Shown here: positions 1-22,875 of the stretch, in pieces
Numbering within the stretch: position 1 is the first letter of the stretch
Layout of the letters: each line of letters begins with the position of its first letter
Assembly: GCA_041650835.1 (NCBI GenBank)
Contig: JBAZKL010000002.1
Location: 602,435 to 666,434 of the forward strand
DNA: 64,000 bases
Reading direction: 5' to 3'
Source: Candidatus Omnitrophota bacterium
GTDB taxonomy: Bacteria > Omnitrophota > Gorgyraeia > Gygaellales > Profunditerraquicolaceae
Notes under the pieces: model-generated
Told to the model about the DNA's origin: nothing
The model's database searches: none
Seen by the model: only the letters and a program-made list of their open reading frames with translations
Made by a program: the position numbers and the translations under genes

Positions 1-707
1 AGAAAGATCAAATTATGGAATGTCAATGAATCAGCTCCCGCGCGCTCTGCAACGCCAAGCATCTCCTCGAGACGCTGATAATTATACCGATTGATAGTGC
101 ACTGCAGATTAACCAGCGGCTTACCATTACCCGTCTTTTTCTTAAAACCGCGGATCATTTCGAGGCCGGCCATGACCTTTTCGAATAAGCCGGGAAACCC
201 GCGGATCTGATCATGTAAAGCGGCATCCCCGTCAAGAGAAAGATTTAATTCATCCAACCCGCTTTCTACCAACTCACCTGCTTTATCCTGAATGAGAGAA
301 CCATTGGTAATGATCAGGCAATGCATCCCTTTTTGTTTTATATATTTTATGGCCTCAATGCACGCGGGATGCAATAAGGGTTCTCCTCCAAAAAGGGTGA
401 TATTCGGAGAAAATGCCGAGACATCATCAATAACCTCTTTAATCCCGTCAAAAGACAATTCCTCCTGAATAAAGCTTTTACCTTGTTTGGCGGTTACCCC
501 CGACTCCCCCCATTGGCCGCACATATGGCAGCGTAAATTACAACGATGCGTCAAGAATAAAGTTATTGCTTCCGGATATCCGCTGTAGCCGTCAGTCAGG
601 TAATAAGCGGCATACGCGCCCAAGCGCTTCAAAAATACCCGATAGGCATATCCCGGCTGCTTTAATGCCTTACTCGCAAAACGCCTCAAATTTCTCAACG
701 ACAGCAT
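1..707 (-). CDS. Radical SAM (SPASM-type) enzyme, 5'-partial at the window edge. The start codon is at 705-707 and the gene is truncated by the window at position 1.
   Basis: The reverse-strand translation gives MLSLRNLRRF...LTHRCNLRCHMCGQWGES, which is the CxxxCxxC radical-SAM cluster motif. GGEPLL follows downstream. This ORF is not in the supplied track because it is open at the window edge. Confidence 0.75.
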   Translation of the reverse strand, partial: MLSLRNLRRFASKALKQPGYAYRVFLKRLGAYAAYYLTDGYSGYPEAITLFLTHRCNLRCHMCGQWGESGVTAKQGKSFIQEELSFDGIKEVIDDVSAFSPNITLFGGEPLLHPACIEAIKYIKQKGMHCLIITNGSLIQDKAGELVESGLDELNLSLDGDAALHDQIRGFPGLFEKVMAGLEMIRGFKKKTGNGKPLVNLQCTINRYNYQRLEEMLGVAERAGADSLTFHNLIF

Positions 708-754
708 ATACCCCCCCACCGTGTATCAATTACCCGTGAACGCGCCGCTCTTTT

Positions 755-1945
755 TCAACTCGACGCCGCCTCATCAATAATATAGATCATTTTCAAAAGT
801 AAATGATCAGGCACATCAGGATGTACAGGCAGCGTCAAGAGATGAGCCGCTAAATAGCAGGCATGAGGAAAAGCAGCAGGTTGATAACCCAGTTCAAACA
901 TATGATGCAGCGGCCTTAAATACATCCGGGACGCTTCTATGCCGGCTTTCCATAAACGTTTCCTTACTTCTTCTACTTTATTGATATCCTTAAATACCAC
1001 CGGCAGCCGGTTGAAGACCGCGCGCGCATCAGGAGCGATGCGAGGTAAAATAATACCCTTTGATGCCTGCAGCGACTCGATGATCCGCATGCCATAACGG
1101 TTCCTGCGGGTAAAAAACTCCTCAGCCTTCTTCAAAAGCATTAATCCCAGACCGGCTGAAAAATTGGTGATCTTCTCAACGCTGAAATCACGCGGCGGAT
1201 GCGTTGATTTAAACAGAGATATTAACGGAAATCCCGCCCCATACAAAAAGGGATTAACCGCCTGGCCGAAGGCAAAGGTCTTAGCCGCGAGGATGCTGTT
1301 ACCCCATATCCCCTCCCGTTTAAATAACCGGGCATAGAGCCTCGAACTGATCTCGGCCAATTCTTTGGAATTGGTCATAAGCGCCCCGCCCGCATAGGCC
1401 GATAAATTCTTACCCCGGTTAAAGCTCAAGAAACTGATATCACTAAAGCTTCCTACCGGCTTAGCGTCTACCCTGCTGCCCATTGCCTGGGCGCAATCTT
1501 CGATCACAAAAACATCACGCCTGATTTTCTCCCGGATACGCCCGACCGACTGCATGCCTATGCCAAACATATGCACGCAAACAACTGCCAGGGTATCCGC
1601 TGATACCGCAGCAAACAATGATTCGGCATCAGCATTAAAATCGTCCATGCTGATATCGCATAAAACCGGCTTCAACCCTGCTTTTTTAACCGCGACCACA
1701 AGGCTGCCGGCAGTATAAGCAGGCAGAACCACTTCTTTCTTGTCCGATTTCTCCCGCAGGACCATAAGGGCTAAATATAACGAAGCAATGCCTGAATTGA
1801 CCAGGTAGACATATTTTTGCTGCATCTGCAACGATACCGCGAAAGAAAACTCGTTAGAAATAAACGCATCCCTGCTGTGGCGCACAGCATAGGCAAGATC
1901 ACCGAGGTCAAATACCCCTCCTATAATAGGGATTTTCGCGATCAT
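755..1945 (-). CDS. DegT/DnrJ/EryC1/StrS-family PLP-dependent sugar aminotransferase
   Basis: The 396-aa ORF has the family layout, including the SFNRGKNL lysine region and the ...VFVIEDCAQAMGS motif. Confidence 0.85.
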   Translation of the reverse strand: MIAKIPIIGGVFDLGDLAYAVRHSRDAFISNEFSFAVSLQMQQKYVYLVNSGIASLYLALMVLREKSDKKEVVLPAYTAGSLVVAVKKAGLKPVLCDISMDDFNADAESLFAAVSADTLAVVCVHMFGIGMQSVGRIREKIRRDVFVIEDCAQAMGSRVDAKPVGSFSDISFLSFNRGKNLSAYAGGALMTNSKELAEISSRLYARLFKREGIWGNSILAAKTFAFGQAVNPFLYGAGFPLISLFKSTHPPRDFSVEKITNFSAGLGLMLLKKAEEFFTRRNRYGMRIIESLQASKGIILPRIAPDARAVFNRLPVVFKDINKVEEVRKRLWKAGIEASRMYLRPLHHMFELGYQPAAFPHACYLAAHLLTLPVHPDVPDHLLLKMIYIIDEAASS

Positions 1946-2604
1946 AATTTAACAGCCTCCACGATAATAACAGGAGCGCAACGTTTTATTAAGGAACCTG
2001 CATACACCCGCCGAACGGGAGAGAAGCCTAATTCGCTCAGTAAGGATTCAATACGCTGCGGGTGATAGGTATTAAGCGGTAAATCACTGACTGTCCGGTC
2101 ATAGTAGCCTGCCAGGCGGAATTTAAGCCGCATGAACCAATTACGGGAATTACGAAAATCAAAAATAACTTTCCCCGACCGCTTGCATACGCGCCTGATC
2201 TCCTGAAATGCCTGGCGTACGGTGTCAAACGATTCCATATTCAAAAGGACATTCACGCATACCACCGTATCGAAGTATTCGTCTTCGAAAGCCAGCTTCG
2301 GCGCAGATGACTTCAACACGGTAATATTCGTAAGGCCCTGTTCCTTTATTCTTTCCCCGGCCCGGCGCAGCCTCGCCTCATCAAAATCAATACCCCAAAG
2401 ACGCATCTGAGGATTCTGCCTGGCGAGTTGTGTTATAAACAATCCTTCTCCACAGCCGACTTCAAGTCCCCTGCCGGATGCGCCGCGGCACATTTCCAGC
2501 GCCTGCCTGCGGATCTTATCCTGCCAATAACCGCTGGAATATTCTCCCCGCTCATCTTTTTTGGAAACATACCGGTGCAGCCAATAATAAAGCCTGGTGA
2601 TCAT
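1942..2604 (-). CDS. Class I SAM-dependent methyltransferase
   Basis: Motif I is present as LEVGCGEGLF, and the fold is Methyltransf_11/25-like. Confidence 0.8.
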   Translation of the reverse strand: MITRLYYWLHRYVSKKDERGEYSSGYWQDKIRRQALEMCRGASGRGLEVGCGEGLFITQLARQNPQMRLWGIDFDEARLRRAGERIKEQGLTNITVLKSSAPKLAFEDEYFDTVVCVNVLLNMESFDTVRQAFQEIRRVCKRSGKVIFDFRNSRNWFMRLKFRLAGYYDRTVSDLPLNTYHPQRIESLLSELGFSPVRRVYAGSLIKRCAPVIIVEAVKL

Positions 2605-2616: not shown

Positions 2617-3513
2617 TTATATAAGAAATTGTTGAAGGCCCTCGGGGAAACAGGAAAACTTATCTTTTTCATTGATATAAAGCATTTTATAAAGCCAAAT
2701 CAAAAGTAAAACATTTCTCTCCCTCTCCCCCAACCCGACGGATGAAGCGTACTGATTGATCTTTTCTTTAACCATCGCGGACAACGAACTATCCCGCGCG
2801 TAAAACAAATTAAAATATGCCAAAAAACACTCCGGTTGAAGATAAACATCTTTTTTCTGCAACCTGAAGCGCGAATGGACATAGCGTAAAATAAACTCCA
2901 GGAGGTCAAGAAGCGGTAAACCAGAGCGGCGCATATTATCCCAATCGAGGACCACGACCTTGTTTTTTTTAAGCATGATATTAGCGGGCCTGAAATCGCC
3001 ATGGCAGCATACGACGGGAATTGACACATCGTTATGCGGGACACCGACAAAAAGGTCAGCGATATAGAAGCTTATTTTATCGAATAAAAAAGCTATTTTT
3101 TCCGCAGGTATCACCACCGGAGATTGCAGGGTTTTGCGATGAAAACCGGCAAGCCACTCGCCTGCCAAGCCCAGATGCGAGGAAAAACTTCTTTGCCAAA
3201 ACAGTTTTTGCCGTTGCGCAAGCGATTCTAAAGTAACGCCGCTGGTATATTCCTCAAATACCAGGCAGTACCTGCCGGCGTCGATAAGATCAAGCATTTT
3301 CGGGATAGAATCTTTTAACGGCTCTTCGCAGGTAAGCATGACCTGTTGCAACAGCTTCAGCTTCTCCTGAAGGCAGTCTTTTCCTGATCTATCATAAACC
3401 TTAACTATTGAAGTGGGTTCATTCTTGTTCTCCTGAAACGAAAAGAAAGTGACCCGGTCTTTATTCTTATGCAGGATATAACCGCTCATTTTATTATTAT
3501 CGGTAAAAAACAT
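2617..3513 (-). CDS. Aminoglycoside-phosphotransferase/choline-kinase-fold (APH-like) kinase
   Basis: The catalytic loop CCHGDFRPANIML and the downstream VLDWDNM (DxD) match the APH/ChoK family. Confidence 0.75.
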   Translation of the reverse strand: MFFTDNNKMSGYILHKNKDRVTFFSFQENKNEPTSIVKVYDRSGKDCLQEKLKLLQQVMLTCEEPLKDSIPKMLDLIDAGRYCLVFEEYTSGVTLESLAQRQKLFWQRSFSSHLGLAGEWLAGFHRKTLQSPVVIPAEKIAFLFDKISFYIADLFVGVPHNDVSIPVVCCHGDFRPANIMLKKNKVVVLDWDNMRRSGLPLLDLLEFILRYVHSRFRLQKKDVYLQPECFLAYFNLFYARDSSLSAMVKEKINQYASSVGLGERERNVLLLIWLYKMLYINEKDKFSCFPEGLQQFLI

Positions 3514-3515: not shown

Positions 3516-4589
3516 TTAATCCCCGGGTTGGGCCAGAATACTAAAATCAGGCACAAAATATTTAACCAGCTTATAAAAAAAGAATGCCCGCGCAAAAGCC
3601 AAAAGGCATGCCTGCATAGTATTGCGGGGCGTCACCAGGTTCTTTAAAAAGAACCTGACCGCGCGGTCATCATCAATGGATACAATATTATGAAAGCGCC
3701 GGTACGCGGGGATCGGGGCAAAAAAACGTATCCGGGAGAAACCTGCTTTTGTGAGCATCCGGATATGGCCTCCATACGTATAGGTATATTCTCTGAAATC
3801 ACGTTTTCTCATATGCCTGCTGTACATATTTGCCAGACGCCGCGGCAAGAGAGGCGCGAAACGCAGGCCCGAATGGGTATCCTTATACCCGAGAAAATTC
3901 AAGAATGACCACCTGTTTTCTATCGCCAAATATAAAAACCCGTCTTTTTTTAAGACCCGGCGTAATTCCTTGAGCGCCTCCAATTGAGCTCGATAGGGAT
4001 CTATCCCTTCCTCGACCGAAGGGATCCATTCCAAAACTCCGTTTAAAACAACCAAGTCAAAATAAGCTTCAGGCAGCGGCAGATGATTGCTCTGCCCGCA
4101 GACCGGAAAAAGATTACTCAGATTTTCGCTCTGCCTCCTCAAAGAAACAAACTCGACCCGGGAAATCGACGTGTCAAAAGCCACGACTTCTTTATAGATC
4201 CGGGAAAGTGCCACTGAAAGGGTCCCCCATCCGCAGCCAAGGTCCAATATCCGCGCGTCATCCTTGAGTGGAACGATAAAGTGCCAGTCCGCCCGTGATT
4301 CATCAAGGATATATTCATAATACGAAGGGTCTGTTTTAAGGAATTTTTCCTTTAAAGCCTCCTGCCAGCCTGCCTGTTTTGCGCGAGCGATCAAATCCTG
4401 CATAACTTCCCGGCTGTATTCACCCCAATATCCGGGTTTCTCCACGCAAAAATCAACAATGCCCTCTTTCACGCTCCAGCTGCGGCCGCAGGCCGGGCAG
4501 GAAAACGATATGCCGGCATTCTGCAGAGGCGCTTTACACAGCGGACAGGCAAATTCAAGACCCTGATATATATTCATAGCTTCACTCAT
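3516..4589 (-). CDS. SAM-dependent methyltransferase with an N-terminal Trm112-like zinc ribbon
   Basis: The ribbon is CPLCKAPL...CPACG and motif I is ILDLGCGWGTLS. The track ORF extends to 4679 but would overlap the upstream gene by 94 bp, so the internal start MSEAMN at 4589 is more plausible. Confidence 0.75.
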   Translation of the reverse strand: MSEAMNIYQGLEFACPLCKAPLQNAGISFSCPACGRSWSVKEGIVDFCVEKPGYWGEYSREVMQDLIARAKQAGWQEALKEKFLKTDPSYYEYILDESRADWHFIVPLKDDARILDLGCGWGTLSVALSRIYKEVVAFDTSISRVEFVSLRRQSENLSNLFPVCGQSNHLPLPEAYFDLVVLNGVLEWIPSVEEGIDPYRAQLEALKELRRVLKKDGFLYLAIENRWSFLNFLGYKDTHSGLRFAPLLPRRLANMYSRHMRKRDFREYTYTYGGHIRMLTKAGFSRIRFFAPIPAYRRFHNIVSIDDDRAVRFFLKNLVTPRNTMQACLLAFARAFFFYKLVKYFVPDFSILAQPGD

Positions 4590-5686
4590 GATTCTCGAGT
4601 TTTCCCGGGTAAAATGCCGGGTGCAAGCAACAGCAATGCTGCCTGCAGGACTGCTTGCGGCTGTATCACTTTTAAGCAACGCATGGTAGAACAGGTCATC
4701 TTATTACACGGCGCGCACACTGCCTTTTGATACAGGACCACCGCCTGAGGGAAAATATTCCTGGGATCAAAACGACGCAGGCTCCCGGGGCCAAAGAGCG
4801 CCACGAGCGGAGTTTTGAGGACAGCTGCGATATGCATCGGCCCGGTATCATTGGAAATATAAAGGCTGCAGCGCGAAATAAGCGCGGCGAGCTCATTAAG
4901 ATCAAGTTTGCCCGCCAGATTCAGCACTGCCGCGCCGGGAACTCCCGCCAATTGCCGGGCGATCCCGGACTCCTGTTTCCCCCCGGTAATCACGAATTTA
5001 AACTCACCTGACTTACTGATACCGGCGATGACCCGGCAAAAGTTTTCTGCCGGCCATCTGCGTGAAAATTCCCCTCCCGGATGAATACCGATAAGGCGGT
5101 CCTCTGCGCTTATATTCGACCGTTCAAGCAAAATAGACACCGCCTGATAACTTTCTTGAGAAATGGATATATTTATATTCCGATCGGGGACAGTGGCTCC
5201 CAACGCAGAAACCATTTCAATATCATATTCCATCTCCCCCTTATCTCCCGGCCAGGATTCAGGTATTTTAACATCAAAGAACCATCCCCGCTTCTGCGTG
5301 TCTCTCCCGGCAGAAACCTTCGCGGCGACCAAGCGGAACAGGAAAAACATCTTTAACGCGCTCACCCGGCTAAGCATGGTCCTCATATTAACTGCCAGGT
5401 CATAACGCTTCTTTCTGAGGAGGAAAAACAAACGCAGCCGGTGAATCGGCCCTTTTTTATAAAAATAAAACGTATCGAAAAGAGCGCGCCCCTGCAATAA
5501 TTCAGCAGCGCGTTCGGTCGCAAGGATATCTATGCGCGCTTGAGGGAATCTGAGCTTTAAAGCCTCAAGAGCAGGAGACGATAAAAGAAGGTCGCCGATC
5601 CCCCCCAGGTTTACCACCAGGATTCTTTTTATATCAGGTAATTCCATACTCTTTTTGTAAAATGATCTTAACTGCCTGAAAAACAT
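4586..5686 (-). CDS. Glycosyltransferase family 9 (heptosyltransferase-like)
   Basis: The N-terminus RILVVNLGGIGDLLLSSPALEALK is the GT9 signature. An alternative start at M14 (5647) would reduce the overlap with the upstream gene. Confidence 0.8.
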   Translation of the reverse strand: MFFRQLRSFYKKSMELPDIKRILVVNLGGIGDLLLSSPALEALKLRFPQARIDILATERAAELLQGRALFDTFYFYKKGPIHRLRLFFLLRKKRYDLAVNMRTMLSRVSALKMFFLFRLVAAKVSAGRDTQKRGWFFDVKIPESWPGDKGEMEYDIEMVSALGATVPDRNINISISQESYQAVSILLERSNISAEDRLIGIHPGGEFSRRWPAENFCRVIAGISKSGEFKFVITGGKQESGIARQLAGVPGAAVLNLAGKLDLNELAALISRCSLYISNDTGPMHIAAVLKTPLVALFGPGSLRRFDPRNIFPQAVVLYQKAVCAPCNKMTCSTMRCLKVIQPQAVLQAALLLLAPGILPGKTRES

Positions 5687-6701
5687 CCTCTATAGAAATA
5701 GCTTTCATGCACGCGTGGCTTAAACAATCGCCTTTTGAACAAGGGCTGCACGCAAGGTCCTTGCGGATAACGGCCGCTTGCTTTCCTGCCGGAGAATAGC
5801 GCAACGGGTCAGTGGGCCCCATCAATGAAACAACCGGGGTTCCTAAGGCGCCTGCCAGGTGCATCGGCCCGGAATTATTGCATATCAAAAGTTTACACCC
5901 GGATAATACCGAAATGAGCGCTTTTATATCAGTTAAGCGCGCCTGGGCCCTGCTGTCATTGATCCCTGCGACGATATCGCTGACCAGGTCTTTTTCTCCG
6001 GGAGCTCCCAGTACAACGATCTTGAGGGAATAGGTTCCCAGCAATTTCTTCGCTAATAAAGCAAAAGAAGATTTATCCCAGCGCTGCGTTGCGTAAAATC
6101 CTCCGGGATGTATGGCGATGATATCATCTTTTGCGCCCCGGCTACCTAGGTCAAGCTTTGGGGTATCGACCGTAACCGGGATCTTTAACCCCTTTAATAA
6201 TTCAAGGTTCAGCTGGGCCATATTTTTTCCGGGGCGCCGTAGCGGGTCGGCCGTATGGGTGAAAAAGATCTCTTTAAAACCAAACCGGAAACCCGCCCGG
6301 ACAGGCGCGGCGCTTATATACGCTAAAAAGGCTGAATCGAACCGGTAATCACAATGCATATCGATCGCCAGGTCATAGCCTGCCCGCCGGATCTTTACGG
6401 CGGCAGGTATTATTTTATCATAGACTTCGATATGGTCGATACTTTTAATCAACTCCGCCAATTCTTTCAAATAGGGGCGCACGACGATACTGATCGCTGC
6501 CTGCGGCAGCGCCAGCTTAAGATTATCAATTAACGGTAACGTTAAGATCAAATCCCCCATACGGTCGATCCTGACGATCAAAATGTTCGCGAAAGAAGCG
6601 CTCGTGCGCGCGCGGGGAGGATAAACGCACTTGAGCAGAAAAATAAACGGCAATCGCAAAACAAAATACACTTCCCTGAGTATTTTCTTAAGTACCGTCA
6701 T
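5634..6701 (-). CDS. Glycosyltransferase family 9 (heptosyltransferase-like), second copy
   Basis: ILIVRIDRMGDLILTLPLIDNLK and the C-terminal GPMHLAGALGTPVVSL match GT9. Confidence 0.8.
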   Translation of the reverse strand: MTVLKKILREVYFVLRLPFIFLLKCVYPPRARTSASFANILIVRIDRMGDLILTLPLIDNLKLALPQAAISIVVRPYLKELAELIKSIDHIEVYDKIIPAAVKIRRAGYDLAIDMHCDYRFDSAFLAYISAAPVRAGFRFGFKEIFFTHTADPLRRPGKNMAQLNLELLKGLKIPVTVDTPKLDLGSRGAKDDIIAIHPGGFYATQRWDKSSFALLAKKLLGTYSLKIVVLGAPGEKDLVSDIVAGINDSRAQARLTDIKALISVLSGCKLLICNNSGPMHLAGALGTPVVSLMGPTDPLRYSPAGKQAAVIRKDLACSPCSKGDCLSHACMKAISIEDVFQAVKIILQKEYGIT

Positions 6702-13286: not shown

Positions 13287-14204
13287 TTATTCCACATTAT
13301 AAATAAAATTAGTATCGTAGAGATACCCCGGGCAATAGCGGTTTGCTTCTGCCGTCTTCCGGGCGACAATATAAAGCTGGTCTCCTTTTTTCTTTTGAAA
13401 AAAAGCGACCGGCAATTTAAACAGCAGCCCGAAGAAAATATATCCCAGGTCCTGCGCGAGATTGACCAAAGTGAAATGCTTTTTACTCATAAACTCCCTG
13501 GAATTATCGCGGCTGTAATTAGAGAACGTATGTATGACCTTCAAATTATTGCCCTCGAGTATATCGCAGGCCTCATTGAGCGCCCAAAGACGGTTATGCC
13601 GGCCATACACCCCGTACTTCGAATACGGCTCCCAAGAGCCGTAAAAAAAGAGTTTATATAAATACTTCCAGAAAAGCCCGTTCGGGGTCGTCAAGATAAG
13701 GACCCCGTTATCTTTAAGGACACGGTTGATCTCACAGATCATGTGCGCGGGGGAATGGATAAGATGTTCCAGGACCTCAGAGCATAAAACCATATCAAAG
13801 GTTTTGTCCGCAAAAGGGAAACGGTCTTTTTCCGCGTTGAGCTGCCAGTAGGGGAATTGATACACCTTCCCTATCGCTCTAATAAAGGCGTTTTCCTGTT
13901 TTATATCGTAGCTGCCGCCCGGCCAGACCCCTTTCGGGGCTGAAATTCCCGTCAGCGTATCATCGCTGAATTCCAACAAGGCGGTCGTTAAAAAGTACGG
14001 GAAACAGCCGATCTCCAGGACCGATCCTTTTTCTTGCCGGTAAAACTTTTTGATCAAACCAAGGGTGTGGGAGATCCGGTTAAAAGAGACGCGCAAATAC
14101 TCGTTTAATTCATGAGAAAGCTCTCCCTGAACGGTCTTTAAAGACTCAATACGGCTCTTTAAAAGCGCTTCCAGCGATTCATCAGTGAACGCCCGCAGTG
14201 CCAT
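13287..14204 (-). CDS. Class I SAM-dependent methyltransferase
   Basis: VLEIGCFPYF and DMVLCSEVLEHL match motifs I and II. Confidence 0.7.
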   Translation of the reverse strand: MALRAFTDESLEALLKSRIESLKTVQGELSHELNEYLRVSFNRISHTLGLIKKFYRQEKGSVLEIGCFPYFLTTALLEFSDDTLTGISAPKGVWPGGSYDIKQENAFIRAIGKVYQFPYWQLNAEKDRFPFADKTFDMVLCSEVLEHLIHSPAHMICEINRVLKDNGVLILTTPNGLFWKYLYKLFFYGSWEPYSKYGVYGRHNRLWALNEACDILEGNNLKVIHTFSNYSRDNSREFMSKKHFTLVNLAQDLGYIFFGLLFKLPVAFFQKKKGDQLYIVARKTAEANRYCPGYLYDTNFIYNVE

Positions 14205-15695: not shown

Positions 15696-16844
15696 TTAAT
15701 GGTTACCCGATAAAACACCTTGATAAACCTGCAATGTCTTTTCCGCGATACGGAAATAACTAAAACGGGCGCTGTATTCTTCGGTTAACTTTACAAGCTC
15801 GTTCATCCGCGGGAGGTCCCGCAATAACCCCGTTATTTTTTCCCGCGCGTGCGCTGCGTCATCATGGCGAAACAACTCTAAACAGGGGACACGCTCATTG
15901 ATCTCGCGATGCGCCTCGATGTCAGACGCCACGATCGGCTTATGATACCCGATGCATAGGCTCAGCGCGCCGGAGGCGCCGGTTGAAGAAAACGGCGCCA
16001 GGCAAATATCGGTCGAGGCGACAATATCGGGGATATCATGCTCCTGAATATATCCGGAAATCCTCACCCGCTGCTGCAGCTTTTTTTGCGCTATTATTTT
16101 CAAAAGACCATGATAATATTCTTGATCAATGCTGTTATCGGTCATACAGCCTCCGGCAATAAACAAAATAACCTCCGGAGGCAATTGCGGTAAAATATCC
16201 AAAATAAGCTCATAACCTTTTTTCCTGTTAATAAACCCGAAAATTGTAATGACGGCCTTATCTTCCAACCCCAGCCTCCTTTTGGCTTGCGCTTTTTCCG
16301 TCGGGCCTAAAGCCCGTGATAACTCCGGTATCCCGTGAGGAATAAGCACTACCCTTTCACGGTTATCAACAAAACGATTCACCGTTACTTGCTGGCAGAG
16401 GGTATGCACGATAATCTTATCGACCCGGGTATACATCGCCTTATGGTACCAGCCTGCCCAGGCATTCCAAAATAAAAGCGTATGATTAAAAACAAACTTT
16501 TTAAGATCTTCGTTAAATCCGCCCTGTACCGGCTTATATGTCGGCCTTACTTCATGCGCGGTCATAATAACGGGGACATTGACGTTTTTCAAGAAATAAA
16601 GGAACCGGTTACGATAAGGCAATTCACCGTTAAAATAAACATAGTTAAACTGCACATGGCAAATATCCGCGCCGGTAATACTCCTGGCTAATGAAGCGTA
16701 ATACGCTTTATCATTGATATAAAACCCGAGCTTGGCGATCTTGATATGAACGCCGCATCGTTTTAAGCCGGTAACCAGATACTGTGAATAATCCGCGATA
16801 CCGTCACGCGAAGTATCCCAGCCGGTACAAAAGGCAACTTTCAT
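15696..16844 (-). CDS. GT4 glycosyltransferase
   Basis: The C-terminal GT1/GT4 fold includes ...APFSSTGASGALSLCIGYHKPIVASD. The start was trimmed to M24. Confidence 0.7.
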   Translation of the reverse strand: MKVAFCTGWDTSRDGIADYSQYLVTGLKRCGVHIKIAKLGFYINDKAYYASLARSITGADICHVQFNYVYFNGELPYRNRFLYFLKNVNVPVIMTAHEVRPTYKPVQGGFNEDLKKFVFNHTLLFWNAWAGWYHKAMYTRVDKIIVHTLCQQVTVNRFVDNRERVVLIPHGIPELSRALGPTEKAQAKRRLGLEDKAVITIFGFINRKKGYELILDILPQLPPEVILFIAGGCMTDNSIDQEYYHGLLKIIAQKKLQQRVRISGYIQEHDIPDIVASTDICLAPFSSTGASGALSLCIGYHKPIVASDIEAHREINERVPCLELFRHDDAAHAREKITGLLRDLPRMNELVKLTEEYSARFSYFRIAEKTLQVYQGVLSGNH

Positions 16845-16845: not shown

Positions 16846-17418
16846 TTACTTTTTAACCTCCAATTCCAGGTAAATCCCTTCAGCCCTGAATATATAACAG
16901 AAAACTTCTTCATATAACGCGATATGCCTGTTAAAAAAAGCCTCCAGGAGCTTAAAAAAACGGTGCAGCATGAGCTGCCGCCTCCTCAAGTGAAAACGGC
17001 AAGACGCATAAAAACCGTATTCTTTCGATAGAGGCTCGCCTTCGATAAAGTAATCGAAAGAACGGGCGCTGAAATGATGGATATGCGTCGGGTCTATAAA
17101 AGAGCCGTCATCACTGAAATGAGGCGTTACGATATAGACTACGGCTGCGGGTTTTGAGACCCGATAGATCTCTTTCATAACACCGACCGTATCAGGTAAA
17201 TGTTCAAGGGCATTGATGCAAACCACGGTATCAAACTCATTATCAGCGAACGGCCAGGGGAACACATTGAGGTCGGCAAACACATCAGCGTGAGAATCGC
17301 GGTTATTATCTATACCGATCGACCCGGGATATTTATTCTTTCCGCAACAAACATGAAGCGCTTTGCCGGCGCGTGCGCGCTCTTGTATCTTAAGGATGTT
17401 GTCCGTCCAATGCTTCAT
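16846..17418 (-). CDS. Class I SAM-dependent methyltransferase (Methyltransf_11)
   Basis: LHVCCGKNKYPGSIGID and DTVVCINALEHL match the family motifs. Confidence 0.8.
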   Translation of the reverse strand: MKHWTDNILKIQERARAGKALHVCCGKNKYPGSIGIDNNRDSHADVFADLNVFPWPFADNEFDTVVCINALEHLPDTVGVMKEIYRVSKPAAVVYIVTPHFSDDGSFIDPTHIHHFSARSFDYFIEGEPLSKEYGFYASCRFHLRRRQLMLHRFFKLLEAFFNRHIALYEEVFCYIFRAEGIYLELEVKK

Positions 17419-18581
17419 AGATCACCCGCCATTTCCTTTGAACAAGCTTCCTGATAAACCGCCAGGGTCTTCTCCGCGGTTTTTTTCCACGAGAAGCTTC
17501 TTGTTATATTTGAACAATCTTGCCGGGTGCGCGCAGCCAGGTCTTTATCCGTAAGCAGCACCCGGATTGAACGGGCGATCTCCTCACTCTGGAACGGGTC
17601 AAAGCTCACTACGCGCTCTCCAACCACTTCTAAAGCCCCTGTATTACGGGAACAGGCTACGGGAATGCCGCAAGCCAAAGCCTCTAAAACCGGCAAACCA
17701 AACCATTCATAGAGGGTAGGTAAAACAAAGGCTGCTGCCCCGTTATAAAGAGCAGGAAGGTATTGATGGCTAACATAATCGGTAAAGATAACCCTTTCGG
17801 AGATCCCTGCCTTTCGGGCTTCTCCTATTAACGCCTGATAATTGGCATCGAGCCTGCCTGCCAGCACTAAATAATGCTCACCCAGGCTTTTATCCTGCAA
17901 CACTATTTTGTAAGCATCTAAAAGCCGGGAGAGATTTTTATTTGCCTCCGCCGAACCGGTATACAACAGGAATCGTTTTCCTGAAAGTCCCAGGTCAGAC
18001 AATACCGGCTCGAGCTCTTTTTCATCGGAGATACGCATGAATTTGTCATCGACGCCCGGATGCACGACCGAAACGCGATTGTACGGCAGGGAAATACGCC
18101 CTAAAAGGTCCTTCCTGGCTAATTCCGAGACCGCGATTATCTTATGCGCAACGCGCCCTACCAGCTTGAGCCACCGGCGTATCTTATCAGCGTTATATTC
18201 TACCCACAGCGTCTGCGGCTGGGCCATACCGTGGAAGGTAACAACCATTTTCCCGCGGGCAGGGACCGGCGAATAATGGGTAAGATTATAATTTATCGTA
18301 TTATGGAACAGGTCCAGGTCACCCAAGAAATATTCAACAGGCGGAAACGACAACTTCTCCCATGAGCGGGCAAGGCAACTCCCCGGAAAACGGCACCACA
18401 CCTGTTTTAACCGCGGGTTATTCTCGGGAAAAGCAAATTGCCCTTTTTTAAACCCATTATAAAAAAGCGCATATTCATGCTCTGTGCCTGCCTCCAATAA
18501 ATTCTTGATCAAATAATACGCGTATTGCCCCTGTCCCCGCAACTCATTCTGCAATACCCGAGCATCAATACCTATCCGCAT
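17415..18581 (-). CDS. GT4 glycosyltransferase
   Basis: FVLPTLYEWFGLPVLEALACGIPVACS is the GT4 signature. Confidence 0.85.
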   Translation of the reverse strand: MRIGIDARVLQNELRGQGQYAYYLIKNLLEAGTEHEYALFYNGFKKGQFAFPENNPRLKQVWCRFPGSCLARSWEKLSFPPVEYFLGDLDLFHNTINYNLTHYSPVPARGKMVVTFHGMAQPQTLWVEYNADKIRRWLKLVGRVAHKIIAVSELARKDLLGRISLPYNRVSVVHPGVDDKFMRISDEKELEPVLSDLGLSGKRFLLYTGSAEANKNLSRLLDAYKIVLQDKSLGEHYLVLAGRLDANYQALIGEARKAGISERVIFTDYVSHQYLPALYNGAAAFVLPTLYEWFGLPVLEALACGIPVACSRNTGALEVVGERVVSFDPFQSEEIARSIRVLLTDKDLAARTRQDCSNITRSFSWKKTAEKTLAVYQEACSKEMAGDL

Positions 18582-18583: not shown

Positions 18584-19588
18584 TTATTTCCCGCTGCTGT
18601 TAGAAAATAAAGCTTTGATTGCCAAGCCCCAAAGACGCACCTTGCGTAATACGCTCCATCCGCCTTTGTACTTCCGGGGAAAAGCCCGCCTATCCTGCTT
18701 CCAGGCGCCGCTGAGCGCCGAGCAGACCCCATCCATGACCGCGTCCGCTAAATCCTGTTTTCCGCCGGCTGCTAATTGCCGGGATTTATTTACCGAATCA
18801 GAAACATACGTAACGCTGAATTGGAGCTTTCTCAACAACGGCGCGTGCTTCTTAATAAGAAGAAACCGGTTGCGAAAGAGATAAAAATAAACCGATGCCG
18901 AATAGACTCCGCCGGTAGCCCGCGACCCCTTATGATACACCAGGACTTTCGGATATAAAAAAGACTTTATCCCCAGTTTAGCGCCGCGCACCCCCCACTC
19001 CACATCTTCGTAATACGCGAAGAAGTCTTCATCCAGCAACCCGACCCGTTCAATGACTTCACGTTTAAAAAAAACGGCGCACCAGGAAGCAAAATCAATT
19101 TCCAAAAGGCCTTTCTGCGCCGCGATATATTCCCATTCATACTGCCTGCATTGATCGCCGTTGCCCCAATCTATCCTGGACCCGGAAAACTGCATCCTTT
19201 GACGATCATCATAAAATGCGATAAGCGGAGAAACAACCGATAACCGGCTTTGCTGTCTCAGGGAGCCCATTAAATCATGAATGATCCCCGGCTCAACAAC
19301 CGTATCGTTATTAAGAATGAACAAATAATCTGCGCCATGGCGCAAAGCGTATCGGATGCCGATATTGTTAGCCAGGCAAAAGCCTTTATTTTCCTTATTC
19401 TCGATTATCACGGTATCTTTAAAGCGGGCGCGGACATCCTCAAGAGAACCGTCGGTCGACCCATTATCGACCAGGATGACTTCGTAATTCCGGTAATCGA
19501 TGCGCGAAACCGATTCCAGGCACTCTAAGGTATCGTTCTTACCGTTCCAATTTATAATAATTATGCTGACTTTTTGCTCAGTGCTCAT
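18584..19588 (-). CDS. GT2 glycosyltransferase
   Basis: VSIIIINWNGKNDTLECL...VILVDNGSTDGS is the GT2 signature. Confidence 0.85.
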   Translation of the reverse strand: MSTEQKVSIIIINWNGKNDTLECLESVSRIDYRNYEVILVDNGSTDGSLEDVRARFKDTVIIENKENKGFCLANNIGIRYALRHGADYLFILNNDTVVEPGIIHDLMGSLRQQSRLSVVSPLIAFYDDRQRMQFSGSRIDWGNGDQCRQYEWEYIAAQKGLLEIDFASWCAVFFKREVIERVGLLDEDFFAYYEDVEWGVRGAKLGIKSFLYPKVLVYHKGSRATGGVYSASVYFYLFRNRFLLIKKHAPLLRKLQFSVTYVSDSVNKSRQLAAGGKQDLADAVMDGVCSALSGAWKQDRRAFPRKYKGGWSVLRKVRLWGLAIKALFSNSSGK

Positions 19589-19590
19589 AT

Positions 19591-20247
19591 TTACCCGATG
19601 ATCTTGTCTATATTTTTATGCAGGAATTCTTTCAACCGCTGCCGGAAAACCAGCCTCTTAAAGCTGCCGGCGGTTAAATCTTCATCACGCAACTCCTTTA
19701 TCCGCTTGCCCGTGACCATAGAATACAGTAAGAATCCCGAAAGGTCTTGTTCATGAAGGTCCTGTGGCCTGACGCATTTCAATAAAACTCCCGGCTGCAC
19801 GTCGCTCTCAAGCTTCTCTATGCGGCAATCCAGGAAAATAGAGCGCATATCCTCCAGTTCAAATCTCCAGAAATCATAGGGATAGCCATGGTATACAAAT
19901 CCGGGAGAACGCGTCGTGATCACCATAACGCCGCCGGGCTTACAGACGGCTTTCATATTATGGATTGCCAGGCGCCAATCCCTGACGTGCTCTAAGAGTT
20001 CGGTCGAAACGACAAGGTCAAAGCTGCGCTCGCCGAACCGGGAAATCAAAGCAGTCACGTCGCAAACTATATCTACCCCCTGCCCCGCGGCTATATCCAC
20101 GCCGATATATTCTTGAGGCCCGTACTGCTCGATCAAAGGACGCAGGGAGCCGTTAACATTACAGGCGCCTATTTCAATGACCCGCTTACCCCTGACCTCA
20201 TCGGCTAAAAGGTTCTTCATTCCAAACATGAAACAGTTTATATTCAT
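19591..20247 (-). CDS. Class I SAM-dependent methyltransferase
   Basis: RVIEIGACNVNGS and DLVVSTELLEHV match motifs I and II. Confidence 0.75.
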   Translation of the reverse strand: MNINCFMFGMKNLLADEVRGKRVIEIGACNVNGSLRPLIEQYGPQEYIGVDIAAGQGVDIVCDVTALISRFGERSFDLVVSTELLEHVRDWRLAIHNMKAVCKPGGVMVITTRSPGFVYHGYPYDFWRFELEDMRSIFLDCRIEKLESDVQPGVLLKCVRPQDLHEQDLSGFLLYSMVTGKRIKELRDEDLTAGSFKRLVFRQRLKEFLHKNIDKIIG

Positions 20248-20257
20248 TCCTCTACCT

Positions 20258-21259
20258 TCATCCTGATTGCCTGGTTAAATAAACACAAACCTGGTCGCCT
20301 TTCCTCTCTTTATTCAACGCGACAGCTTTTTCCCGGAATTTTTCAACATTCTCCGCGGTAAAAATGCTATGGTGAGGCTCAACGCAATACGACCGCCCGT
20401 CCCTTAAAGGGATATCCTGCGCGTATTGAAGGCTCCCGATGAATTGGAATTCAGTCGAATCAAAATCAATTCTTTTTATCGATAACCCGGAATTCCGCGC
20501 GAGCGTATCAATATTTTGTAGCGTAAACAGGAAGAAATGGCGGGGAGCGTCGATCTGCACCCAGTTTACGCCGAATTCCCTCCAGGCATAGGAAGATACT
20601 GTCGGGATCCTGATCAAAGCATGACCTGCCTTGTTCAAGAGCCGCGCGATATCAAAGAATACCTTTTGGGGCTGGCGCATATGCTCCAAAGAATGATGCA
20701 GCATAATAACATCGAAGGCCCCGGAAACAGCGGATATTTCCTTCTTTTCCACACGCACCGTCCCCCGGGTAAAATCCCCGTCAATAAAACTGTCGGCTCC
20801 GTGAAGCCGGCGAAAACCATACCAGGCTAACTCCGACAAAAGCCTCGCGTTGCCGCATCCCACATCCAGAATCCGGGAATCAAGACGAGCGTTACATAGC
20901 TTAAGCCAGGAGAGATATTCGGCTAACTGCCGCTCCAGCGGCCTATACCGGCAAACCAGCCTTCCGATACAGCTTTTTCGTCCCAAATAATACTCCGTGC
21001 GCTTATGGCGTAAAAACCGGGCAACCGGAAAATCCGGTTTATCCAAAGGTATCACGGCATCTGTTTGAAACGAATAGTACTCTTGCGGATAATAGCCGGA
21101 CATATCCGCGGGTATTTCTTTTATTTGCAAACACCCGCAGGCAGAACATTCAAAATAAACAAATACCTCTGCCGAACCGAACATCATTTCCCTGATGCGG
21201 AATTCCTTATTTTTGTCCCGATTCCCGCAAATCTTACAAACAAATATCCGCTCCTCCAT
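20258..21259 (-). CDS. SAM-dependent methyltransferase with an N-terminal zinc ribbon
   Basis: The ribbon is CKICGN...CSACGC and motif I is ILDVGCGNARLLS. Confidence 0.75.
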   Translation of the reverse strand: MEERIFVCKICGNRDKNKEFRIREMMFGSAEVFVYFECSACGCLQIKEIPADMSGYYPQEYYSFQTDAVIPLDKPDFPVARFLRHKRTEYYLGRKSCIGRLVCRYRPLERQLAEYLSWLKLCNARLDSRILDVGCGNARLLSELAWYGFRRLHGADSFIDGDFTRGTVRVEKKEISAVSGAFDVIMLHHSLEHMRQPQKVFFDIARLLNKAGHALIRIPTVSSYAWREFGVNWVQIDAPRHFFLFTLQNIDTLARNSGLSIKRIDFDSTEFQFIGSLQYAQDIPLRDGRSYCVEPHHSIFTAENVEKFREKAVALNKERKGDQVCVYLTRQSG

Positions 21260-21267
21260 ACAGACTC

Positions 21268-22875
21268 CTACGCCAGGCTCTTTATAATTACGCGCGCAAA
21301 GGGCAGCTTTTCCTGCAAGAACAGGATATCATTCGCGCTCATCGACTTTCCAAAGCGTATCCCCGGGATATAAGCAGCGGTAAAAACGATTCCCCGCGCC
21401 AAAAGCATGATAAAAAGTAAAGGCCGTGACGGGGCAATAACGATATAATTAACCAGCATATCAAAAACATAAACGAATGCCGCGGCAAAGATACCCGCCG
21501 CACAATAAGGAACGATGATCTGGAAGAACTTTCTCACCGGGATCCCCAGGGCCTTATGCAAAGTTACCAGGAAATAGAGCGTACCGGCATTGGAGGCGAT
21601 CATCGTACCCCATGCCACCCCGTAAAAGCCCATCAGTTTGATGAACAAGAAGCTCAAAATAATATTTAAAACAATAATAATGACCGATCCGCGCGCCATC
21701 AGTTGCGGCTTATCAATCGCCAAACATGTCGAAGAAGCGACTTGCGCGATAACATTGATCATCGAGCTCAAAGCCAGTATCTGGACAATAAAAGCCGCCC
21801 GCTCATAGCCTTTCCCCATCCAAACCGACATAATATGGAACGCTGAAATAAACAAAAAGATAAATGCCGGCACCATTAAGAATGCCAGGTATTTTGTTGT
21901 CATTAAATATGCTTCAATAAGCTTTATTCGCTCGCCTTTGCTTTCGATCTCGGTAAAAGCGGGAATAAGAGCGGCAATAAGCACTGACGATATGCCGATA
22001 ACGCTGCCGACGATCCCGCTGCCTAACTGATAAAACGATACTAAACCCAGGGAAAGAAAATATACGATCAAGACCTTGTCGGTCTGAGCGGTTATGACCC
22101 CGGAGATCTTGGTGATCTGAACCCGGAACCCGAAGTTAAATAACGCTTTCATCATAGGCCAATCAAAAAAACTTATCCCTAACCGTATTGAAGGGACTAA
22201 ACGCAAAGCTATCGCCACATTAATAACGGTAACGATGCCGAAAAGAATGATGCTATTGATGATCAGGCCGTTGAGCCCATAGCCTGACTTCAAAAAGAAA
22301 ACCACTCCCGCAACATTAAGGCAAGACATTCCTATAGCGACCTTATTGCTTATGTCCATTCTTTGCAAGCCGCTTTGGATAGAGCTCAAAGGGCCTAATG
22401 CATTATTGCAAACAAAAAGAAAGACTCCCGCAACTACAACGAATTTAGCTTCGCTCAATAATCCCGGAGGGATCTTAAAGAAACCAAGGAATAAATGGAC
22501 AAAGAGCAGCGTCACGGCCATTACCACCAGGCCAAAAATAGAATAAAAAAGTAAGCCGGTATTAATGACCCGGTTAATCTTCCCGAAATCCCTCTTCGTA
22601 TAACAATCCGATATGAATTTAACGAAGGTTGAACCTATCCCGCAATCAAATAAAGCAAAATAACCGGTAATTACCGTCATGATCGCCCAAAGCCCGAAGC
22701 GTTCAAGGCCGATATAATGGATAATATACGGGATGAGGAATAATCCGACGATCGCCCCCCACGCCCTCCCGAAGAAATTATAGATAGTATTACGCACTAT
22801 CTTCCCCGAGACTCCTTGAGAAGGCCCTGAACACTTATCCATGCTGATACGCCCCCTGTATATTTTCTTCAGCAA
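21268..22875 (-). CDS. wzx: Wzx-type oligosaccharide flippase (MOP superfamily)
   Basis: The 535-aa ORF has about 12-14 TM helices and an N-terminus typical of the polysaccharide biosynthesis protein family. The start may instead be M12. Confidence 0.75.
   Translation of the reverse strand: MLKKIYRGRISMDKCSGPSQGVSGKIVRNTIYNFFGRAWGAIVGLFLIPYIIHYIGLERFGLWAIMTVITGYFALFDCGIGSTFVKFISDCYTKRDFGKINRVINTGLLFYSIFGLVVMAVTLLFVHLFLGFFKIPPGLLSEAKFVVVAGVFLFVCNNALGPLSSIQSGLQRMDISNKVAIGMSCLNVAGVVFFLKSGYGLNGLIINSIILFGIVTVINVAIALRLVPSIRLGISFFDWPMMKALFNFGFRVQITKISGVITAQTDKVLIVYFLSLGLVSFYQLGSGIVGSVIGISSVLIAALIPAFTEIESKGERIKLIEAYLMTTKYLAFLMVPAFIFLFISAFHIMSVWMGKGYERAAFIVQILALSSMINVIAQVASSTCLAIDKPQLMARGSVIIIVLNIILSFLFIKLMGFYGVAWGTMIASNAGTLYFLVTLHKALGIPVRKFFQIIVPYCAAGIFAAAFVYVFDMLVNYIVIAPSRPLLFIMLLARGIVFTAAYIPGIRFGKSMSANDILFLQEKLPFARVIIKSLA

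Follow-up and report, generated by a model that had tools for sequence, protein, structure and literature searches.

A methyltransferase-dense Wzx/Wzy-type envelope glycan locus in a Candidatus Omnitrophota bacterium and its recurrent methyltransferase-kinase gene pair

We have analysed a 64,000-nucleotide stretch of DNA from a Candidatus Omnitrophota bacterium (GenBank assembly GCA_041650835.1, contig JBAZKL010000002.1, positions 602,435 to 666,434; the whole stretch is called the window below). We have focused mainly on positions 1-22875, the central 23 kb of an envelope glycan locus of ~35 kb in total, where eight class I S-adenosylmethionine (SAM) methyltransferase (MT) domains stand among glycosyltransferase (GT) genes. 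In kind this is a Wzx/Wzy-type envelope glycan locus: its Wza/Wzc side ends at position 27639, and a WecA-like initiating transferase is found ~7 kb past the window start, on the contig (L003) carrying the continuation of the locus; the loci of relatives are labelled L005-L007, L018-L020, L022, L023, L025 and L027-L029. Every gene of the array lies on the minus strand, to which all coordinates of the locus refer, and the genes are co-directional throughout. In the order of transcription, from high to low coordinate, they encode Wza, Wzc, the Wzy_C protein, Wzx, MT8z, MT7, a GT2, a GT4, MT6, a GT4, a 502-aa membrane protein, MT5, MT4, a GT4, a GT-C, a small GT2, a GT4-MT3 fusion, GT9b, GT9a, MT2z, the kinase Kin, MT1, a DegT aminotransferase and a radical-SAM enzyme.

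The open reading frames (ORFs) were annotated with Pfam and NCBIfam profiles, and each element listed in an earlier note on this DNA, made by a model from the sequence alone, was confirmed. The eight MT domains scored above the curated Pfam cut-offs at exactly the coordinates where the note had placed them. MT1 (1942..2604; 220 aa; Methyltransf_25/11, E~1e-20; NodS, E=1e-7) overlaps the start of the DegT gene by 4 nt. MT2z (3516..4589; 357 aa; Methyltransf_11, E=1.4e-16) carries an N-terminal zinc ribbon with matches to the Trm112p/RlmA zinc ribbons, and MT3 is the C-terminal part of the fusion protein described below. MT4 (12465..13214; 249 aa; Methyltransf_23, E=2.5e-14) overlaps the start of the adjacent GT4 gene by 16 nt. 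MT5 (13287..14204; 305 aa) is an MT-fold protein which matches only the C-terminal half of the Methyltransf_11 profile (E=1.6e-11; Methyltransf_23, E=6.5e-10), while the short MT6 (16846..17418; 190 aa; Methyltransf_11, E=6e-10) is placed between two GT4 genes with gaps of -4 and +1 nt. MT7 (19591..20247; 218 aa; Methyltransf_23, E=9e-13) has orthologs in L018 (62% identity) and L025 (53%). Finally, MT8z (20258..21259; 333 aa; Methyltransf_23, E=1e-17) likewise has a zinc ribbon at its N-terminus and is distantly paralogous to the MT part of the fusion protein (25% identity, E=3e-13). The three zinc-ribbon MTs that had been claimed were recovered as three CxxC...CxxC pairs, at residues 15/31 of MT2z, 8/38 of MT8z and 382/405 of the fusion protein.

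Between 755 and 22875 there are thus 20 complete genes, eight of them with an MT domain, and 29% of this DNA codes for MT domains. If 1-3% of the genes genome-wide are assumed to be MT genes, the binomial probability of at least eight such genes among 20 is between 1e-11 and 6e-8, and phmmer searches with the eight domains detected none in the other 41 kb of the window; the clustering is far beyond chance. Recent tandem duplication was ruled out as its source: the domains are mutually not more than 30% identical, and their substrates probably differ. None of them is recognisable as a quinone, tRNA or rRNA enzyme, the possibility that would have spoken against a glycan role, since no domain of the eight reached the NCBIfam cut-off of UbiE, UbiG, MenG, TrmB, BioC, RlmA, TlyA or any other equivalog (the best scores were 20-51 bits against cut-offs of 100-420, those with UbiE/UbiG/BioC-type models being 28-51 bits). 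Hydrophobic segments were not detected in any MT, which implies that they would work in the cytoplasm, with nucleotide sugars or the not yet flipped lipid-linked glycan as substrates.

Selection on the MT genes was estimated from the orthologs in L005, which are of intact length and 67-89% identical, with MT7 and MT8z lying outside the coverage of L005. The six genes with an ortholog there (MT1, MT2z, MT3, MT4, MT5 and MT6) are all full length, with dN/dS of 0.09-0.21 as compared with 0.13-0.26 for the GTs; the MTs examined are under purifying selection. Motif I is canonical in five of the eight domains and non-canonical in MT5 (GCFPY), MT6 (CCGKN) and MT7 (GACNV), and MT5 additionally lacks the acidic residue after strand 2 that usually binds the SAM ribose. 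Despite their degenerate motif I, MT5 and MT6 are the most constrained MT genes, with dN/dS of 0.094 and 0.097 (0.19 for MT4 and 0.21 for MT1).

About ten GTs had been predicted in this region, and ten were found. The most direct connection with the MTs is made by the 658-aa protein at 6698..8674, in which a GT4 domain (Glycos_transf_1, E=1e-29, residues 168-350) is followed by a zinc ribbon and by MT3 (Methyltransf_23, E=1.6e-24, residues 444-609). This GT4-MT fusion is kept in ~14 protein clusters at 42-82% identity, some of its relatives carry an extra GT2 or GT9 domain, and the GT4 half occurs also unfused elsewhere. Two heptosyltransferase-like proteins are encoded next to it: GT9a (4586..5647; Glyco_transf_9, E=5e-32), the end of which overlaps the MT2z start by 4 nt, and GT9b (5634..6701; Glyco_transf_9, E=2e-28). 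With the NCBIfam heptosyltransferase II model GT9a reached 124.2 bits and GT9b 115.2 bits (cut-off 134.6), and GT9a reached 125.4 bits with the heptosyltransferase III model (cut-off 170.2). The other soluble enzymes are three GT4 proteins with Glycos_transf_1 domains (11311..12480, E=2e-39; 15696..16844, E=1.6e-11; 17415..18581, E=4.5e-30) and a GT2 (18584..19588; Glycos_transf_2, E=1.9e-21).

A further small soluble GT2 (8699..9382; Glycos_transf_2, E=2e-31) is of the polyprenyl-phosphate sugar synthase type (DPM1/AglJ/PpgS-like), its best NCBIfam matches being AglJ (1.9e-36), a dolichyl-phosphate hexose transferase and PpgS, all under cut-off. In homologous loci it always adjoins the gene of a GT-C membrane glycosyltransferase (PMT_2/ArnT-like; here 9843..11336, PMT_2, E=8e-9, several hydrophobic segments), and this pairing implies that a lipid-phosphate sugar serves as the donor for glycosylation in the periplasm. 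The 502-aa polytopic membrane protein (14182..15690) has nine hydrophobic segments and no Pfam match; it could be a GT-C-like transferase or polymerase, with a weak match, under cut-off, to the Leptospira LA_3751/LA_3752 putative-GT family (E=2.6e-12). Between the small GT2 and the GT-C gene lies an intergenic stretch of 460 nt (9383..9842) that contains no ORF and is GC-rich (56%, against ~47% around it) and structured: its predicted RNA fold of -194.7 kcal/mol (z=-5.0 relative to shuffled sequence) includes several perfect GC hairpins. It gave no Rfam match even in a permissive scan (nor did the whole window in an Rfam gathering scan), an exact-match scan of metagenome contigs for its central hairpin found nothing, and a GtrA-like small flippase ORF, considered as a candidate, is not present in it. 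The stretch is absent from the orthologous L005, and L006 keeps only its first ~140 nt.

The export genes stand at the high-coordinate end. The Wzx-type (MOP) flippase (21268..22842) matches Polysacc_synt and Polysacc_synt_3 (E~5e-10, above the Pfam cut-offs) and has ~10 hydrophobic segments. The Wzy_C-domain membrane protein (22835..24211; Wzy_C, E=4e-13), the gene of which falls just outside the end of the 1-22875 region, may be a polymerase, a ligase or an O-oligosaccharyltransferase, its NCBIfam matches (an exosortase-associated O-glycosylation ligase and RfaL) being weak and all under cut-off. Pfam bore out the DegT aminotransferase, the APH-like kinase and Wzx of the earlier note, with the Wzy_C protein as the candidate Wzy. 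At higher coordinates stand a Wzc-type chain-length/tyrosine-kinase co-polymerase (24334..26256; Wzz, GNVR and AAA_31 domains) and a Wza-type outer-membrane polysaccharide export protein (26743..27639; Poly_export, E=1.7e-24, with SLBB domains). The 486 nt between the last two genes (26257-26742) contain a single, implausible 132-aa ORF with a TTG start (26333-26731), and they are probably a regulatory or promoter region for wzc. In the other direction, past the window start, L003 carries the rest of the radical-SAM gene with its SPASM domain, a GT4, a 479-aa protein (weak metallohydrolase match), WbqC, a PIG-L deacetylase and, at the distal end of the locus, the 342-aa WecA-like Glycos_transf_4 protein (L003 16895-17923; WecA, E=9e-38, under the equivalog cut-off). 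ABC-transporter genes were not found by Pfam in the window or in its continuation, where Wzx is present instead.

No gap is longer than 72 nt in the 15-gene run that begins with Wzy and ends with the GT-C gene, or longer than 47 nt in the 10-gene run between the small GT2 and the radical-SAM gene, both included. Overlaps of MT genes with adjacent genes measure 4 nt for GT4/MT6, GT9a/MT2z and MT1/DegT, 16 nt for MT4/GT4 and 23 nt for the membrane protein/MT5. With one strand, small gaps and MT/GT overlaps of 4-23 nt the locus is not split into unrelated operons. Three spacers are bigger: 486 nt precede wzc, 122 nt (24212-24333) separate it from wzy, and the third is the 460-nt stretch described above. 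There may be three or four transcription units, yet they are contiguous, co-directional and functionally coherent. Scans of the locus with promoter and terminator consensus sequences did not perform better than on shuffled sequence, so that transcription units are not definable from them.

The low-coordinate end of the array is formed by MT1, the DegT/DnrJ/EryC1-family sugar aminotransferase (755..1945; Pfam, E=2.5e-47; dN/dS 0.125), which is under all NCBIfam equivalog cut-offs (PseC, WecE, ArnB and others), and the 5' part (235 codons) of the radical-SAM/SPASM gene (3..707; Radical_SAM, E=6e-21; cluster motif CNLRCHMC). The full-length radical-SAM protein (384 aa, completed on L003) has Radical_SAM, Fer4_12 and SPASM domains only, and no B12-binding domain; among solved structures it comes closest to the cytosylglucuronate decarboxylase BlsE (E=2.5e-11), with BtrN at 3e-4. 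This enzyme had been counted toward methylation: the gene is indeed present, but with a SPASM domain, no B12 domain and BlsE and BtrN as the nearest relatives a role as a ninth methylating enzyme was ruled out. The radical-SAM gene adjoins DegT in all homologous loci, orthologs of MT1 stand directly upstream of DegT in L005, L007, L018, L020 and L023, and the trio MT1-DegT-radical-SAM is kept in every one. Judged from the weak likeness of MT1 to NodS, N-methylation of an amino sugar by this enzyme is plausible. Genes for B12-binding, class B methylase-like radical-SAM enzymes are found in related loci (L020 1-1008; L022 107-1495; L027 6914-8635; L029 5911-7386), three of them near an MT2z-kinase pair; the locus in the window has none.

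The most conspicuous arrangement in the array is that of GT9a, MT2z and Kin. Kin (2617..3513; 298 aa; APH, E=1.4e-6) is a kinase of the APH/choline-kinase fold with intact HGDFRPAN...LDWD motifs. It has four close relatives in a word-indexed database and 531 at E≤1e-3 by exhaustive HMMER scan, among which kinase domains are found fused to MT, GT9, GT4 or polysaccharide deacetylase domains. MT-kinase fusions are represented by P0229, P0291, P0344 and P0179 (the last was found independently as a homolog of MT2z), and the 983-aa P0223 is a GT9-MT-kinase protein, 48/54/38% identical to GT9a/MT2z/Kin in the same order as the genes in the window. In every context of the MT2z family examined for which DNA was available (seven out of seven: the window, L005, L023, L025, L027, L028 and L029), a gene of the kinase family lies directly downstream of the MT2z-family gene, although the identity of the latter to MT2z falls from 89% in L005 through 57% (L023), 43% (L027), 38% (L025, labelled Elusimicrobia) and 38% (L028) to 33% (L029). 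The downstream kinases were confirmed by profile (E 1e-113 to 2e-11), one of them having no Pfam domain at all; HxDxxxxN is intact in all and D[WF][DE] in four of five. Glycan loci make up nearly all of the contexts, Wzx is also present in three, and in L025, L027 and L029, too, ABC-transporter genes are missing and Wzx is found instead. The sister Omnitrophota loci L018 and L020 lack both MT2z and Kin, so the pair is gained or lost as a unit. Taken together, this gene context provides good evidence for consecutive action of MT2z and Kin, with GT9a as the supplier of their substrate.

The structural searches with this pair were less specific. The AF2 model of MT2z (pLDDT 95) had RlmA(I), with the same zinc-ribbon-plus-MT layout, as its top Foldseek match, at TM ≤0.46, and the top 50 included many phosphoethanolamine MTs (Plasmodium, Haemonchus, C. 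elegans, Arabidopsis) and farnesyl-diphosphate MTs. Within the MT2z family R151, R226, H239 and R250 are invariant. With a kinase-only profile the best three Protein Data Bank (PDB) matches were choline kinases, including the pneumococcal LicA (E~1e-4). The AF2 model of the kinase, built from only four close homologs, had a mean pLDDT of 35 and was discarded, and single-sequence PDB searches with MT8z, MT2z, MT1 and the kinase gave generic matches or none.

The organisation of the locus is not restricted to this genome. The closest species-level genome is an Omnitrophota metagenome-assembled genome (MAG) with ~80% protein identity (L005). At 43-82% identity, loci in other Omnitrophota keep a core that consists of the small GT2, the GT4-MT fusion, the two GT9 genes, MT1, DegT, the radical-SAM gene, a GT4, a protein without assigned function, WbqC, PIG-L and the WecA-like gene; the more distant of them (43-62%) are L018/L019 (GWF2_43_52-like, GCA_003499645.1), L020 and L023 (GCA_016929115.1). 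The other, variable half of the locus, in the direction of Wzx (a placement seen directly only for L018), holds further MTs. Seven MT domains were counted in L018 (two of them FkbM-type), five plus a B12-binding radical-SAM in L020, and four, including a GT2-Methyltransf_24 fusion, in L023. MT4 is present in L005 and L007 and absent from L006, which shows that single MT genes come and go between near-identical loci. The last locus (L006, CAZPNW010000226.1, ~80% identity), in which nothing corresponds to MT4 between MT5 and the GT4, is labelled 'uncultured Planctomycetales', a doubtful label because of its similarity to Omnitrophota genomes.

The possibility that a high MT count is unique to this genome was ruled out by the sister loci, which carry 4-7 MT domains; the density is therefore a lineage trait and not a one-off, and the eight domains in 22 kb are the high end of a lineage-wide habit. 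The other loci of a GT4-based genome scan contained 0-2 MT-like ORFs per ~20 kb, in a small and biased sample covering other Omnitrophota, Planctomycetota-labelled MAGs, Desulfobacterales, Sulfurospirillum, Saprospiraceae and Bacillus. Methylation of bacterial glycans was described as 'a rarely reported event' in the study of the Tannerella forsythia cluster (PMC6120980), and the five methyl groups on six sugars in the S-layer glycan of Kuenenia were regarded as exceptionally high (PMC5088730). The description of the MT density as exceptional in the earlier note consequently stood only in part: it is well above that of characterised clusters (three MTs in 27 kb in T. forsythia; PMC6120980), but it is the norm of the lineage. 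A preprint on complete Omnitrophota genomes recognised polysaccharide cassettes as hypervariable regions and did not mention MT richness (10.64898/2026.06.07.730766).

In our interpretation, to which we assign a probability of roughly 0.65, the array is an envelope glycan locus whose MTs tailor the residues of the glycan, with GT9a-MT2z-Kin as one functional unit and MT1-DegT-radical-SAM as another. By analogy with the established Wzx/Wzy-dependent pathways, the WecA-like phosphoglycosyl transferase encoded just outside the window would initiate the glycan on undecaprenyl phosphate, the soluble GT4, GT2 and GT9 enzymes would elongate it at the cytoplasmic face, Wzx would flip it across the membrane, the Wzy_C protein would polymerise or ligate it, and Wzc and Wza would export it. 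The small GT2 would make a polyprenyl-phosphate sugar, from which the GT-C enzyme or enzymes might add the sugar in the periplasm. The eight soluble, divergent MT domains would methylate in the cytoplasm single residues, or their nucleotide-sugar precursors, as each GT adds them; such a tailoring per GT step would account for the close association of nearly all MT genes with GT genes, as neighbours, by overlap or by fusion. Kin could place a phosphate on the residue that GT9a adds, and MT2z could methylate either this phosphate (giving a methyl-phosphate, as WbdD does) or a neighbouring position. The second unit might tailor an amino sugar, by oxidation or decarboxylation through the radical-SAM/SPASM enzyme, transamination through DegT and possibly N-methylation through MT1. 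The contextual evidence that the MTs are glycan enzymes (the fusion, the constraint, the conserved loci and the precedent of T. forsythia) is strong. Gene content, fusions, synteny, conservation and purifying selection were read directly from the DNA of this and related genomes. We infer from them the substrates, the order of the reactions and the chemistry of the product, that is, O- or N-methylation, heptose, phosphate and a hydrophobic surface.

Several observations weigh against this interpretation. The gaps of 460, 122 and 486 nt could separate transcription units. Heptose is a possible, not an established, component of the product, because both GT9 proteins score just under the heptosyltransferase II/III cut-offs. 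The non-canonical motif I of MT5, MT6 and MT7 makes their catalytic competence doubtful, yet possible, and MT5, with the acidic residue missing as well, may be non-catalytic. PDB sequence searches and Foldseek returned generic class I matches only, hence the specificity of the MTs is not readable from their sequences and every substrate assignment leans on gene context. WbdD did not appear among the best 60 PDB matches of the fusion and kinase profiles or among the best 50 Foldseek matches of MT2z. Phosphoethanolamine N-methyltransferases are among the nearest solved relatives of MT2z, and choline kinases are the nearest to Kin, which would fit a different chemistry.

It is rather unlikely, but has to be considered, that several of the MT-fold proteins are non-catalytic (structural or scaffolding) or act outside the glycan, so that the methyl content of the product would be well below the gene count. 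The degenerate motif I in three domains, the acidic SAM-binding residue missing in one and the lack of an assignable substrate specificity for any of the eight are in line with this, and in T. forsythia three MTs give only two methyl groups (PMC6120980). However, examples of glycan MTs that function in spite of a missing canonical motif I are known (MtfO and MtfY; PMC6120980), the most degenerate domains here are under the strongest purifying selection (0.094 and 0.097), and five domains have canonical motifs. A different objection concerns the MT2z-kinase pair, which might produce phosphocholine or N-methylated phosphoethanolamine de novo, acting as an ethanolamine/choline kinase and a phosphoethanolamine N-methyltransferase, and the product would then decorate the glycan. 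The phosphoethanolamine N-methyltransferase route occurs in plants, nematodes and Plasmodium. The MT-kinase fusion profile does match the Arabidopsis phosphoethanolamine N-methyltransferases (E=5e-13 and 1e-11) and its kinase half choline kinase; choline kinases including LicA head the list of the kinase profile, phosphoethanolamine MTs are among the Foldseek top 50, the neighbouring kinase in L027 is a Choline_kinase by Pfam, and an MT-kinase fusion would be equally expected for two consecutive small-molecule steps. These likenesses are nevertheless weak (kinase E~1e-4, TM ≤0.46, 12-19% identity), and RlmA, RebM, AtmM and farnesyl-diphosphate MTs rank equally. The explanation is rated lower, as improbable, because neither the window nor its continuation has a Pfam match to a LicC-type cytidylyltransferase or a LicD-type transferase, and because the GT9-MT-kinase, GT4-kinase and deacetylase-kinase fusions point to a glycan substrate.

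The nature of the glycan itself can also be seen otherwise. The enterobacterial waa locus is composed of GT9, kinase, GT4 and Wzy_C genes, and this composition is mirrored here; the locus, or its conserved half, might accordingly direct the synthesis of a methylated lipopolysaccharide (LPS) core or O-antigen (waa/rfb-like), with the GT9 proteins as core heptosyltransferases, Kin as a WaaP/WaaY-like kinase and the Wzy_C protein as WaaL. The near-threshold heptosyltransferase II/III scores, the appearance of RfaL among the weak matches of the Wzy_C protein and the conservation of the core half across divergent Omnitrophota (43-82%), more typical of a core structure than of a strain-variable capsule, would fit. 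This is unlikely, though, since the genes immediately next to the array are those of Wzc and Wza, the hallmarks of capsule/exopolysaccharide (EPS) export, no Kdo transferase, lipid A or ADP-heptose synthesis gene was found in the 64-kb window, Kin has no significant Kdo/WaaP match (PF06293; Pfam, E≤0.01), and the WecA-like initiating enzyme indicates an undecaprenyl-linked glycan. As the Wzy_C domain is common to the PglL/PilO O-oligosaccharyltransferases, and also to polymerases and WaaL ligases, the locus could instead make a methylated oligosaccharide that general protein O-glycosylation transfers to, for example, an S-layer or giant surface proteins, with a PglL-type Wzy_C protein, and with the DPM1-like GT2 and PMT_2 as an O-mannosylation-like system. 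A 'putative O-glycosylation ligase' is the second-best NCBIfam match of the Wzy_C protein, the AglJ-like small GT2 is invariably paired with the PMT_2 GT-C, an 8192-aa ORF begins ~3 kb past the locus, and methylated protein glycans have been characterised in T. forsythia (PMC6120980) and in the Kuenenia S-layer (PMC5088730). On the other hand, Wzc and Wza argue for an exported polymer, an S-layer or acceptor protein was not identified, PMT_2 also covers ArnT-like modifiers of lipid A and glycans, and the proximity of the giant ORF is possibly coincidental because a transposase gene lies between it and the locus; we regard protein O-glycosylation as quite unlikely. Between a capsule/EPS, an LPS O-antigen or core and a protein-linked glycan the sequence does not discriminate.

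Among the known systems the locus resembles the group 1 capsule/EPS loci (E. coli colanic acid and K30) in Wzx, Wzy_C, Wzc, Wza, the WecA-like enzyme and the co-directional run of GT2/GT4 genes. It differs in its eight MT domains, as compared with none or one in the characterised examples, in the two GT9 genes, the kinase, the two GT-C-type membrane proteins and the radical-SAM/SPASM gene, and in the fact that one half of it is conserved across a phylum-level clade and is therefore not serotype-variable. The closest counterpart in the arrangement of the genes is the polycistronic T. forsythia general protein O-glycosylation cluster of 27 kb (gtfSMILE, mtfJOY, wzx), where knock-outs of MtfJ/O/Y demonstrated that small class I MTs, two of them without a canonical motif I, O-methylate defined residues (PMC6120980). 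Here, too, small class I MT genes, some without canonical motif I, are interleaved with GTs in a Wzx-containing locus, but the T. forsythia cluster, from a different phylum, has three MTs in its 27 kb, as compared with the eight domains in 22 kb here, and it has no GT-MT fusions, kinase, GT9 or Wza/Wzc. For the S-layer O-glycan of Kuenenia stuttgartiensis, a surface glycan from a member of the PVC group that carries as many as five methyls on six sugars (PMC5088730), the glycan structure and not the genes is known, whereas here we have genes only; it establishes that highly methylated surface glycans exist in this part of the tree. The DegT/radical-SAM neighbours recall the BtrS/BtrN and BlsH/BlsE pairs of aminoglycoside and nucleoside pathways, in which a DegT-family aminotransferase likewise stands beside a radical-SAM of the sugar-tailoring type, but the similarity is low (E 2.5e-11 and 3e-4) and the context is an envelope glycan instead of an antibiotic.

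WbdD, the bifunctional MT-kinase chain terminator of E. coli O9a (PDB 4AZS), adds a phosphate to the terminal mannose and subsequently methylates that phosphate (PMC3482155). The MT2z-Kin unit has the same composition, a class I MT and a kinase fold, and the same order, with the MT N-terminal and the kinase C-terminal, as a gene pair as well as in its fused relatives. In the window, however, the unit is split into two genes, MT2z has an N-terminal zinc ribbon and a 130-residue C-terminal extension, and Kin belongs to the APH/choline-kinase branch, while the WbdD kinase is eukaryotic protein-kinase-like (Src/ROCK). Kin ends with the kinase fold and has no coiled-coil or membrane-binding tail; transmembrane segments were not detected in MT2z, and Kin has only one borderline hydrophobic stretch (140-158), inside the kinase fold. 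Furthermore, the module occurs in Wzx-containing loci without an ABC transporter, as opposed to the Wzm/Wzt pathway of WbdD, and it is linked to GT9 and not to a mannosyltransferase polymerase. The comparison with WbdD that had been proposed earlier came out negative: by PDB profile searches and Foldseek Kin and MT2z are not detectable relatives of WbdD, nor is there a detectable relationship to WaaP, Kin giving no significant Pfam match to Kdo/WaaP. With the waa modules (WaaC/F/Q with WaaP/WaaY) the unit shares a GT9 beside a kinase-fold enzyme and the logic of adding a residue and then phosphorylating it, but the GT9 scores are under the heptosyltransferase cut-offs, the kinase match is missing as stated and the MT partner has no counterpart in waa.

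Omnitrophota are uncultured, very small and probably host-dependent bacteria. It is tempting to speculate, with a low expectation that the whole proposal holds, that the GT9/zinc-ribbon-MT/APH-kinase genes may represent an undescribed module, independent of WbdD and widespread in uncultured bacteria, which would cap a residue of a Wzx-exported glycan with methyl-phosphate (or with phosphate and an O-methyl group), and that together with 4-8 more MTs it might give a low-polarity, methylated surface to this ultra-small, host-attached clade. The traits that distinguish the locus are the number and diversity of the MTs, the repeated GT-MT fusions, the MT-kinase module, WbdD-like on paper and not detectably related to WbdD, and the core conserved across an Omnitrophota clade. 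Methylated bacterial glycans are rarely reported and their enzymes are not predictable from sequence; eight divergent glycan-associated MTs, each paired with a GT, offer a natural test bed for the assignment of specificity. The conserved and repeatedly fused MT-kinase module suggests that phosphorylation-coupled methylation, so far represented by WbdD, extends beyond the ABC-transporter O-antigen systems. A conserved, heavily tailored surface glycan of Omnitrophota is in addition a candidate determinant of cell-cell attachment and a possible chemical biomarker. The general picture of how such loci work is left unchanged.

The DNA on both sides of the locus has features of its own. On L003, ~9-10 kb past the window start (19504-21191), there are a Y1 (IS200-type) transposase gene, a 155-aa ORF and the start of the giant 8192-aa ORF; giant proteins are a known peculiarity of Omnitrophota. 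Directly upstream of Wza and on the same strand, the region 27645-41623 encodes a 655-aa coiled-coil protein, an HD-domain protein, an AAA_22 (ExeA-like) ATPase, TPR proteins (one of 1025 aa) and two paralogous secretins (33139-34932 and 38227-40044), which have 70% nucleotide identity over 245 nt; this secretin region beside the glycan locus is possibly a second export apparatus. A hydrogenase cluster at 46926-52188 comprises a maturation protease, the NiFe large and small subunits, an MvhD/FlpD-like protein and an HdrA-like flavoprotein with 4Fe-4S domains, and is consistent with an anaerobic lifestyle. Finally, AT-rich palindromic repeats of ~65-170 nt, with units such as AAGTCTAAAGTTTAAAG...CAAAGGAAG, are found in intergenic positions at 44789-44957, 54236-54404, 57365-57541 and 61958-62089, and they look like a dispersed hairpin element (REP/MITE-like) or shared terminators.

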